A stretch of 64,000 nt of DNA from positions 38,299-102,298 of the forward strand of contig CATZZP010000001.1 of the NCBI GenBank assembly GCA_958426775.1, given 5' to 3'. Below are positions 55,309-56,343 of the stretch, piece by piece; position 1 is the stretch's first letter, and every line of letters begins with the position of its first letter. Source of the DNA: an uncultured Bacillota bacterium (lineage in GTDB: Bacteria > Bacillota > Clostridia > Lachnospirales > CAG-274). The notes under the pieces are model-generated. The model was not told where the DNA came from. It made no database searches and saw only the letters and a list, made by a program, of their open reading frames with translations. A program made the position numbers and the translations under genes.

Positions 55309-56343
55309 ATGGCAACACGTTGTATAAGAGGTGCAATTACCGTAAATGAGGATACAAGACAAGAGGTACTTGCCAAAACAGAGCAGATGTTAAGGGAAAT
55401 TATTTCAGCTAACAGTCTTAGGCTTGAGGATATTTCTTCTATTATATTTACAGCTACAAACGATGTTAAGTCTGCTTATCCTGCTGTTGCGGCAAGGGGC
55501 TTAGGCATAGTTGATGCTTCTCTTATGTGTGTACAGGAAATGTATGTTGAGGGTAGCTTAAAAATGTGCATAAGGGCTATGGTATCTGTTGAAAGCGATA
55601 AGCCCCAGTCGGAAATGCAGCACATTTACTTAGAGGGTGCAAAGGTATTAAGACCTGACCTTGTAAAAAAAAACTCTAATATAGCTGTTGCAATAGACGG
55701 TCCGGCAGGCTCAGGCAAAAGTACGGTAGCAAAGCTTATTGCAAAGGAATACTCCTTTATATATGTAGATACAGGTGCTATGTACCGTACAGTAGGGCTT
55801 TATTGCCTTGAAAATAACATAAACCCCGATAACGAGGCAGAGCTTGATGCAGTTATTGACAATATAAATATCAGCCTTAAAAACAGCGAGGGTATGCAGA
55901 GGATTTTCCTTGATAACAGAGATGTAACCGAGGAAATAAGAACTCAGCAGGTTGCCTCCTATGCCTCAAAGGTAGCGGCAATTCCCTCTGTAAGGTCTGC
56001 TCTTGTAAAGCTGCAGAGGCAGATAGCCAAGGGGCATAGTGTTGTAATGGACGGCAGGGATATAGGCTCAAACGTGCTTACAGATGCACAGGTTAAAGTT
56101 TATCTGGATGCCCATGTAAAAGAGCGTGCCTTAAGACGGGTAAATGAGCTTAAGGAAAAGGGTATTGAGGCTGATATAGATAAAATTGTATCAGAGGTTA
56201 TTGCCAGAGATGAAAATGATAAAAACCGAAAATGTAATCCGTTGACAGTTGCAGAGGATGCAGTTATAATTGATACTACAGCTATGAGCATAGAACAGGT
56301 TAAAGGGGAAATCGGTAGGCTTATAGAAAAGGTAATAAAATAG
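55309..56343 (+). CDS. cmk: Fusion protein: AroH-class chorismate mutase (N-terminal ~125 aa) + cytidylate kinase (C-terminal ~220 aa)
   Basis: One uninterrupted ORF. N-terminus [16 protein letters not shown]...[23 protein letters not shown]...[14 protein letters not shown] aligns with B. subtilis AroH (MMIRGIRGATTVERDT...CMQEMDVTGGLKKCIRVMMTV...HVYLEKVVVLRPDL). After the linker VKKNSN comes [21 protein letters not shown]...YVDTGAMYR...VMDGRDIGS (Cmk P-loop and NMP-binding). ATG 55309 follows GGAGG. Confidence 0.8.

Follow-up and report, generated by a model that had tools for sequence, protein, structure and literature searches.

The 64,000-nucleotide stretch analysed here (the window; positions 38,299 to 102,298 of contig CATZZP010000001.1, from an uncultured Lachnospirales bacterium of the CAG-274 lineage) contains a gene, aroH·cmk, in which a chorismate mutase of the AroH class is joined to a cytidylate kinase (Cmk) in one open reading frame (ORF). 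At the level of the sequence, AroH-Cmk is confirmed as a genuine fusion of two complete domains. It is best explained, with a probability of about 0.8, as a bifunctional enzyme with a trimeric core and three tethered, independent cytidine monophosphate (CMP) kinases, born of the loss of a stop codon between coupled neighbouring genes. The parts of the gene are listed below in window coordinates.

55298..55302, forward strand: Shine-Dalgarno (SD) sequence GGAGG, 6 nucleotides (nt) 5′ of the aroH·cmk ATG, read from the sequence
55309..56343, forward strand: aroH·cmk ORF, 344 amino acids (aa), read from the sequence
55309..55662, forward strand: AroH-class chorismate mutase domain, residues 1–118 (PF07736, TIGR01796, fold, catalytic residues)
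55663..55683, forward strand: inter-domain linker VKKNSNI, residues 119–125 (dip in model confidence, low identity)
55665..55673, forward strand: homopolymer of nine adenines (A9; GTA AAA AAA AAC) inside the linker, candidate transcriptional-slippage site
55684..56343, forward strand: cytidylate kinase domain, residues 126–344, with the stop codon (PF02224, TIGR00017, fold)
55699–55725, forward strand: Cmk P-loop GPAGSGKST, from the sequence

The ORF has one SD sequence and one ATG, at 55309, and its frame runs without a stop or frameshift throughout. This agrees with the initial annotation, which had been made from the DNA letters and described a single-ORF fusion of AroH with a complete Cmk; the motifs that it quoted for both halves are present in the translation. 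The Pfam domains that it proposed to look for, CM_1 and Cytidylate_kin, were both matched, and all four profiles (PF07736, TIGR01796, PF02224, and TIGR00017) score above their cutoffs. The concern that the N-terminal domain might fail the AroH profile is not borne out: PF07736 (CM_1) matches residues 4–118 with 144.5 bits against a cutoff of 27 and is covered from position 2 to 116 of its 116 positions. The NCBIfam equivalog model TIGR01796 (CM_mono_aroH) gives 129.3 bits against a cutoff of 82.

Comparison of the AroH half with solved chains by sequence gave E-values of 3e-34 for 1xho and 8e-30 for 1com. The predicted fold of the subunit matches the same two structures in Foldseek with a template modelling score (TMt) of 0.94–0.97 and a root-mean-square deviation of ~1 Å. 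The enzymes of B. subtilis (1COM/2CHT) and C. thermocellum (1XHO) thus share the fold and catalytic residues of the window domain and are 46–48% identical to it; however, monofunctional AroH ends at its C-terminal tail, whereas the window AroH runs on into a 220-residue kinase. Residues R7, Y57, R63, C74, E77, R89, Y107, L114, and R115 of the window protein align to R7, F57, R63, C75, E78, R90, Y108, L115, and R116 of B. subtilis AroH, which we take, from the literature on 2CHT, to form its active site. These residues are kept in 119–120 of the 120 fusion homologs among the matches listed, the position of F57 being occupied by Tyr. Judging by this alignment, the AroH domain would convert chorismate to prephenate.

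The Cmk half is likewise complete. PF02224 (Cytidylate_kin) matches residues 127–339 with 247.9 bits (cutoff 26), and the match to TIGR00017 (cmk) reaches 241.2 bits against a cutoff of 135.55. The closest solved chain by sequence is 1q3t (E-value of 3e-55), with 2h92 and 1kdo also found, and the predicted fold matches solved Cmk structures in Foldseek with TMt of 0.90–0.94. The Cmk enzymes of E. coli (1KDO), S. pneumoniae (1Q3T), and S. aureus (2H92) share with the window domain the P-loop, the CMP-binding Arg and Asp residues, and the fold. Specifically, R160, R211, R250, D251, R300, D304, and R307 of the window protein align to R41, R110, R131, D132, R181, D185, and R188 of the E. coli enzyme (1kdo). 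Across 83 fusions, no variation is seen in the P-loop, R160, R211, the D248-G-R-D251 motif, R300, or D304, and little at R307 (E. coli R188), which is kept in at least 90% of them. The domain would therefore be expected, from its sequence, to act as a kinase of CMP and deoxycytidine monophosphate (dCMP). No in-frame ATG, GTG, or TTG was found between the A-run and the P-loop, nor was an SD sequence for a separate cmk found after the run; therefore, Cmk would be produced only within the fusion, as its C-terminal half, unlike the solved Cmk enzymes named above.

The AlphaFold2 model of AroH-Cmk has a mean predicted local distance difference test (pLDDT) of 90.4, a predicted template modelling score (pTM) of 0.61, and a dip in confidence at residues 111–130. 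Together, these values point to two well-folded domains that are joined by a flexible tether. A Foldseek search with the model found no solved chain covering both the AroH and Cmk domains. Over 7,140 pairs of fusions, the mean pairwise identity is 0.602 for AroH and 0.599 for Cmk, and only 0.29 for the linker; the divergence of the two domains is correlated across the pairs (r = 0.77). The linker, previously counted as six residues, is better described as about seven (VKKNSNI), while its in-frame continuation into Cmk stands.

Among 5.8 billion proteins searched, the fused architecture was found in 120 or more clusters (at 90% identity). Their members are 51–100% identical to the window protein, have a length of 321–353 residues, and all carry both Pfam domains. 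When 1.84 billion representatives at 50% identity were scanned exhaustively with HMMER, about 30 clusters gave one alignment across both domains, down to 38% identity, versus roughly 3,300 strong Cmk clusters. All carriers are Clostridia, including Lachnospirales/Tyzzerella ([Clostridium] colinum), Anaerotalea, and many metagenome-assembled genomes (MAGs) of gut or rumen Clostridia; the taxonomic spread obtained from the genome scan is a sample, not a census. The suggestion that the gene might be a lineage-specific fusion is thereby supported, as the profiles, catalytic residues, predicted folds, and distribution all agree. “(d)CMP kinase” is the only label that the members bear in the sources; AroH-Cmk has neither a curated model nor a name in the databases searched, and no description of the fusion was found in searches of the literature.

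In the window, aroH·cmk lies within a string of genes in the order pheS-pheT, rpiR, HI0933-like flavoprotein gene, aroH·cmk, ispH·rpsA, terminator, and liv-type transporter. The neighbouring features are as follows.

49277–49505, forward strand: T-box leader 5′ of pheS-pheT, 125.5 bits
53169–54056, forward strand: RpiR/SIS regulator (Pfam)
54072–55292, forward strand: HI0933-like flavoprotein (Pfam), TAA stop at 55290–55292
56242..56270, forward strand: candidate internal promoter TTGACA-N17-TATAAT (sigma-70-type consensus, 12/12 match)
56352..58325, forward strand: IspH (LytB) fused to ribosomal protein S1 (NF000907, PF02401, and four S1 stretches)
58344..58383, forward strand: intrinsic terminator-like hairpin with a 12-bp stem and a T tract, at the end of the operon

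The gaps between rpiR, the HI0933-like gene, and aroH·cmk are 15–16 nt. As had been noted from the sequence, a second fusion gene follows directly: ispH·rpsA begins 8 nt 3′ of aroH·cmk, and its product matches NF000907 with 747.2 bits against a cutoff of 624. The candidate promoter sits inside the 3′ end of the cmk coding region, ~82 nt 5′ of ispH·rpsA. Its two hexamers are the same in all 10 orthologs from the clade of the window, despite synonymous changes in the spacer; L172, a member of the next clade, has lost the element. There is good comparative evidence for regarding it as a candidate embedded promoter of ispH·rpsA. No Rfam element was found near aroH·cmk.

When 80 Clostridial loci sampled from species genomes are compared, a common gene order HI0933-like > cmk > ispH can be noted, with or without AroH. 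AroH-like sequences in these loci are found only directly 5′ of cmk or fused to it, and the rpiR and HI0933-like flanks do not differ between genomes in which cmk is fused and those in which it is not. In six loci (L002, L005, L007, L010, L084, and L085), aroH and cmk are adjacent but separate, each locus having an aroH stop codon, an SD sequence, and an independent cmk start. The junction in L010 reads ...KLRPDLKR-TGA-GGAGGAG-N4-ATG-KKFAIAIDGP, and in L085 the two genes overlap by TAATG. The V-K-K of the fused linker occupies the place of the M-K-K start of stand-alone Cmk in these unfused relatives. A metagenome scan for relatives additionally revealed three distant aroH-cmk loci among generic Cmk matches. 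In L012 (7800–8215), a decayed aroH remnant lies 5′ of an intact, separately started cmk; it consists of an N-terminal IRSAITV..., an internal deletion, a frameshift, and then ...CIRILVVV...RPDLSD-stop. An intact aroH is located in the same gene context in L007. This suggests either the loss of AroH in one lineage or an error in the assembly of the MAG.

A search with the AroH domain by itself gave many stand-alone AroH proteins. Their clusters (P0297–P0304) contain proteins of 118–122 aa, with up to 96 members per cluster, and are 66–69% identical to the window AroH domain. Their tails, ...RPDLVNKR or ...RPDLVNKKQ, resemble the fused linkers ...RPDLVNKKTEAVAIDGP.

Further upstream partners of fused Cmk are an HI0933-like protein, as encoded directly 5′ of aroH·cmk in the window, EPSP (5-enolpyruvylshikimate-3-phosphate) synthase, UvrC, MiaA, and DUF2889, and a Cmk-Cmk tandem exists as well (representatives P0155, P0220, P0176, P0182, P0192, P0198, and P0140). 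The curated fusions EPSP synthase-Cmk (NF008816), PanC-Cmk (NF010004), and Cmk-Der (NF007071) join Cmk to an operon neighbour, as is the case here, and in NF008816 (for example, P0176) the partner is likewise a shikimate-pathway enzyme. The window protein stays far below the cutoffs of these models, with scores of 187.8 against 943 for NF008816, 234.3 against 524 for NF010004, and 170 against 953 for NF007071, only its Cmk half being matched.

A persistent string of aromatic-pathway genes > cmk > rpsA, with lytB sometimes between, has been described (PMC1173090; Song, Bonner, ... Jensen 2005). In that supraoperon, an aromatic gene lies directly 5′ of cmk and is followed by lytB/ispH and rpsA, as at the window locus. 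However, the aromatic gene in those strings is that of EPSP synthase, placed after tyrA and aroQ·pheA, whereas the window has aroH alone and fused, and its ispH and rpsA are fused as well. Given that the linkage of aromatic genes to cmk > rpsA is known and that unfused neighbour pairs exist, the gene can be explained as a fusion of neighbours, and no metabolic rationale is needed. The initial annotation had found no rationale for linking an aromatic amino-acid step to a pyrimidine-nucleotide step; the fusion that it proposed holds, while the pairing is less odd than it had supposed.

We propose that the N-terminal AroH domain forms the usual homotrimer, with active sites at the subunit interfaces, and converts chorismate to prephenate, while a Lys-rich flexible linker of ~7 residues would tie a standard bacterial CMP/dCMP kinase to each AroH subunit. 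Chemically, the two activities have nothing in common, and they would act independently. As for the origin of the gene, aroH probably came to lie directly 5′ of cmk in the Clostridial string rpiR > HI0933-like > cmk > (plsC) > ispH·rpsA. The two genes would have been translationally coupled, and the loss of the aroH stop codon and the spacer may then have joined them. Fusion and fission seem to have occurred more than once: in a neighbour-joining tree based on concatenated AroH and Cmk sequences, the unfused pairs are scattered among the fused forms.

Several observations weigh against this proposal. No other shikimate-pathway gene, chorismate mutase, or cmk is present within the 64-kb window. 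The position of B. subtilis K60 is occupied by Val in the window AroH; the Ile found there in the C. thermocellum enzyme (1xho), a Clostridial AroH, softens this substitution. The neighbour-joining tree that points to repeated fusion or fission of aroH and cmk has no support values. Finally, some of the other Cmk fusions that have a single representative could be gene-calling artefacts.

Two other readings make less of the fusion as a bifunctional enzyme. The junction contains an A9 run, and homopolymers are error-prone, so an indel in the run could have merged two separate genes artificially. We give this almost no credence. Orthologous DNAs were obtained for each of 11 proteins with 62–100% aa identity; they come from different samples, and 11 of 11 are in frame, including two that lack the run. 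Thus, an artefact of sequencing or assembly at the homopolymer is ruled out for practical purposes, and the frameshift hidden in the linker, of which the initial annotation had warned, was not found. An identical protein, flanked by the same genes, is encoded on a contig from an independent assembly, the architecture is shared by the clusters described above, and the lack of a separate start for cmk after the run argues in the same direction. It is also improbable, although not to the same degree, that the AroH domain serves as a chorismate or prephenate sensor or as a trimerising scaffold for Cmk and takes no part in aromatic synthesis. Such a role would fit the lack of other shikimate-pathway genes nearby, the decayed aroH beside an intact cmk in L012, where AroH appears dispensable, and the pTM value, which is compatible with more than one arrangement of the domains. 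However, the catalytic residues, including R90, E78, Y108, and C75 (B. subtilis numbering), are all invariant, the domain passes the AroH equivalog model, sister lineages keep a free-standing AroH beside cmk, and a variable, flexible linker is ill-suited to a fixed allosteric interface. This reading corresponds to the moonlighting of AroH suggested in the initial annotation, which found no support, the active-site residues being invariant and the domain as conserved as Cmk.

The A9 run allows another reading, which extends the bifunctional-enzyme explanation and does not exclude it. The run may cause RNA polymerase to slip, with mRNA containing eight or ten adenines giving free AroH of 122–125 aa and the in-frame mRNA giving AroH-Cmk. 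AroH would then be in excess over Cmk, and mixed trimers would be possible, much as the T. thermophilus dnaX gene yields tau and gamma. We consider this a tentative possibility, on the less probable side. In its favour, the A9 run is longer than any other A or T run in the 64-kb window and lies precisely where the two domains meet. The short products would end 2–3 codons past the run: one additional A leads to ...VKKKL-stop, and one A fewer leads to ...VKKTLI-stop. In the 11 orthologs, GTA AAA AAA AA is kept exactly in nine, down to 62% aa identity, though neighbouring synonymous sites differ. Stops in both alternative frames occur within 8 codons in nine of the nine run-bearing orthologs, and a one-A insertion leads to a stop within 3 codons in eight of them (in L168, after 9). 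Among 36 conserved codon triples, that for VKK shares first place in synonymous conservation, and of the 13 Val columns that are invariant, its GTA is conserved best. At each of the four remaining x-K-K-[K/N] sites in the window, an AAG interrupts the run, even though AAA makes up 72% of Lys codons before A in the window coding sequence (49% before T and 16–17% before C or G). The layout is like that of T. thermophilus dnaX, in which an A9 run with nearby stops leads to ~50% short product (PMC1088944). It is also from a length of nine that many genomes show selection against runs (PMC1088944). In both cases, the run is on the sense strand at a domain boundary with stops near in both other frames, and the short product of dnaX is a complete functional module, as that of the window gene would be. 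Moreover, the conserved internal promoter would shield ispH·rpsA from early termination.

On the other hand, the conservation of the run is only suggestive, as the run is absent from many members of the fusion family: it is missing in two close orthologs (L165 and L171) and in most distant fusions. The 56 kb of coding sequence contain one run of at least nine adenines, equal to the expectation of 0.77 from synonymous shuffling; A6 and A7 runs are about twice as frequent as expected, and those of T6 and T7 are rarer than expected. Genome-wide avoidance of A9 as a sign of selection was considered and rejected, since the count of such runs lends it no support. Given the context-dependent use of Lys codons, about half of all K-K-N sites should read AAA AAA AAY, and the conserved Lys columns all keep their codon in at least nine of the 11 orthologs. 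There is no stimulatory RNA structure in the 96 nt 3′ of the run (z = 0.19 versus shuffles). An exact look-up of the four predicted slippage products found none in the protein collection, an absence that carries no information where the organism is this rare. The linker is also the site where a run does the least harm, since a frameshift there still leaves an intact AroH; the run could thus be tolerated and not selected.

Programmed −1 ribosomal frameshifting of the E. coli dnaX type was also considered. The heptamer A AAA AAC is present; however, neither an RNA structure nor an upstream SD-like element accompanies it, and this candidate was rejected. Another linker with a run was observed in L083 (3340–3420), which encodes a distant fusion (50% identity) with a GC-rich linker. 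Directly 5′ of its Cmk domain, it reads GGT AAA AAA AAT TTT TTC, that is, A8 followed by T6, and can be considered a second linker that looks slippery, in surroundings otherwise rich in GC.

Other features of the window can be mentioned. A pyrimidine de novo cluster (9565–17032, forward strand) comprising pyrB, the genes of dihydroorotase and orotidine monophosphate decarboxylase, carA, and carB is located ~40 kb 5′ of cmk, neither adjoining it nor sharing its operon. A cyclic diguanosine monophosphate (c-di-GMP-I) riboswitch aptamer was found at 21340–21422 on the reverse strand (84 bits), and a GGDEF-EAL protein is encoded nearby (18498–20795, reverse strand). Four consecutive paralogous genes at 2348–6458 (forward strand) each encode an N-terminal Cu_amine_oxidN1 (“stalk”) domain, the remainder of their sequence having no assignment.

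Fusions of Cmk and the linkage of aromatic genes with cmk and rpsA were known; AroH as a fusion partner of Cmk is not described in the literature searched. If slippage at the A9 run does take place, it would add a rare bacterial case, outside insertion sequences and dnaX, in which slippage serves gene expression, and would illustrate how a fusion can stay functionally “unfused”. The gene might then be, although we regard this as doubtful, a “half-fused” one with a set ratio of free AroH to AroH-Cmk, equivalent among metabolic enzymes to tau and gamma of Thermus dnaX, and an evolutionary intermediate between its unfused and fully fused relatives. The fusion here reflects the operon neighbourhood and not a shared pathway, Cmk being fused with whatever lies upstream; this calls for caution when function is derived from “Rosetta-stone” fusions. 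Hundreds of fusion entries are named only “(d)CMP kinase”. As a result, metabolic reconstructions of these gut and rumen Clostridia would miss the chorismate mutase, and organisms carrying the mislabelled fusion could wrongly be called auxotrophs for Phe or Tyr.

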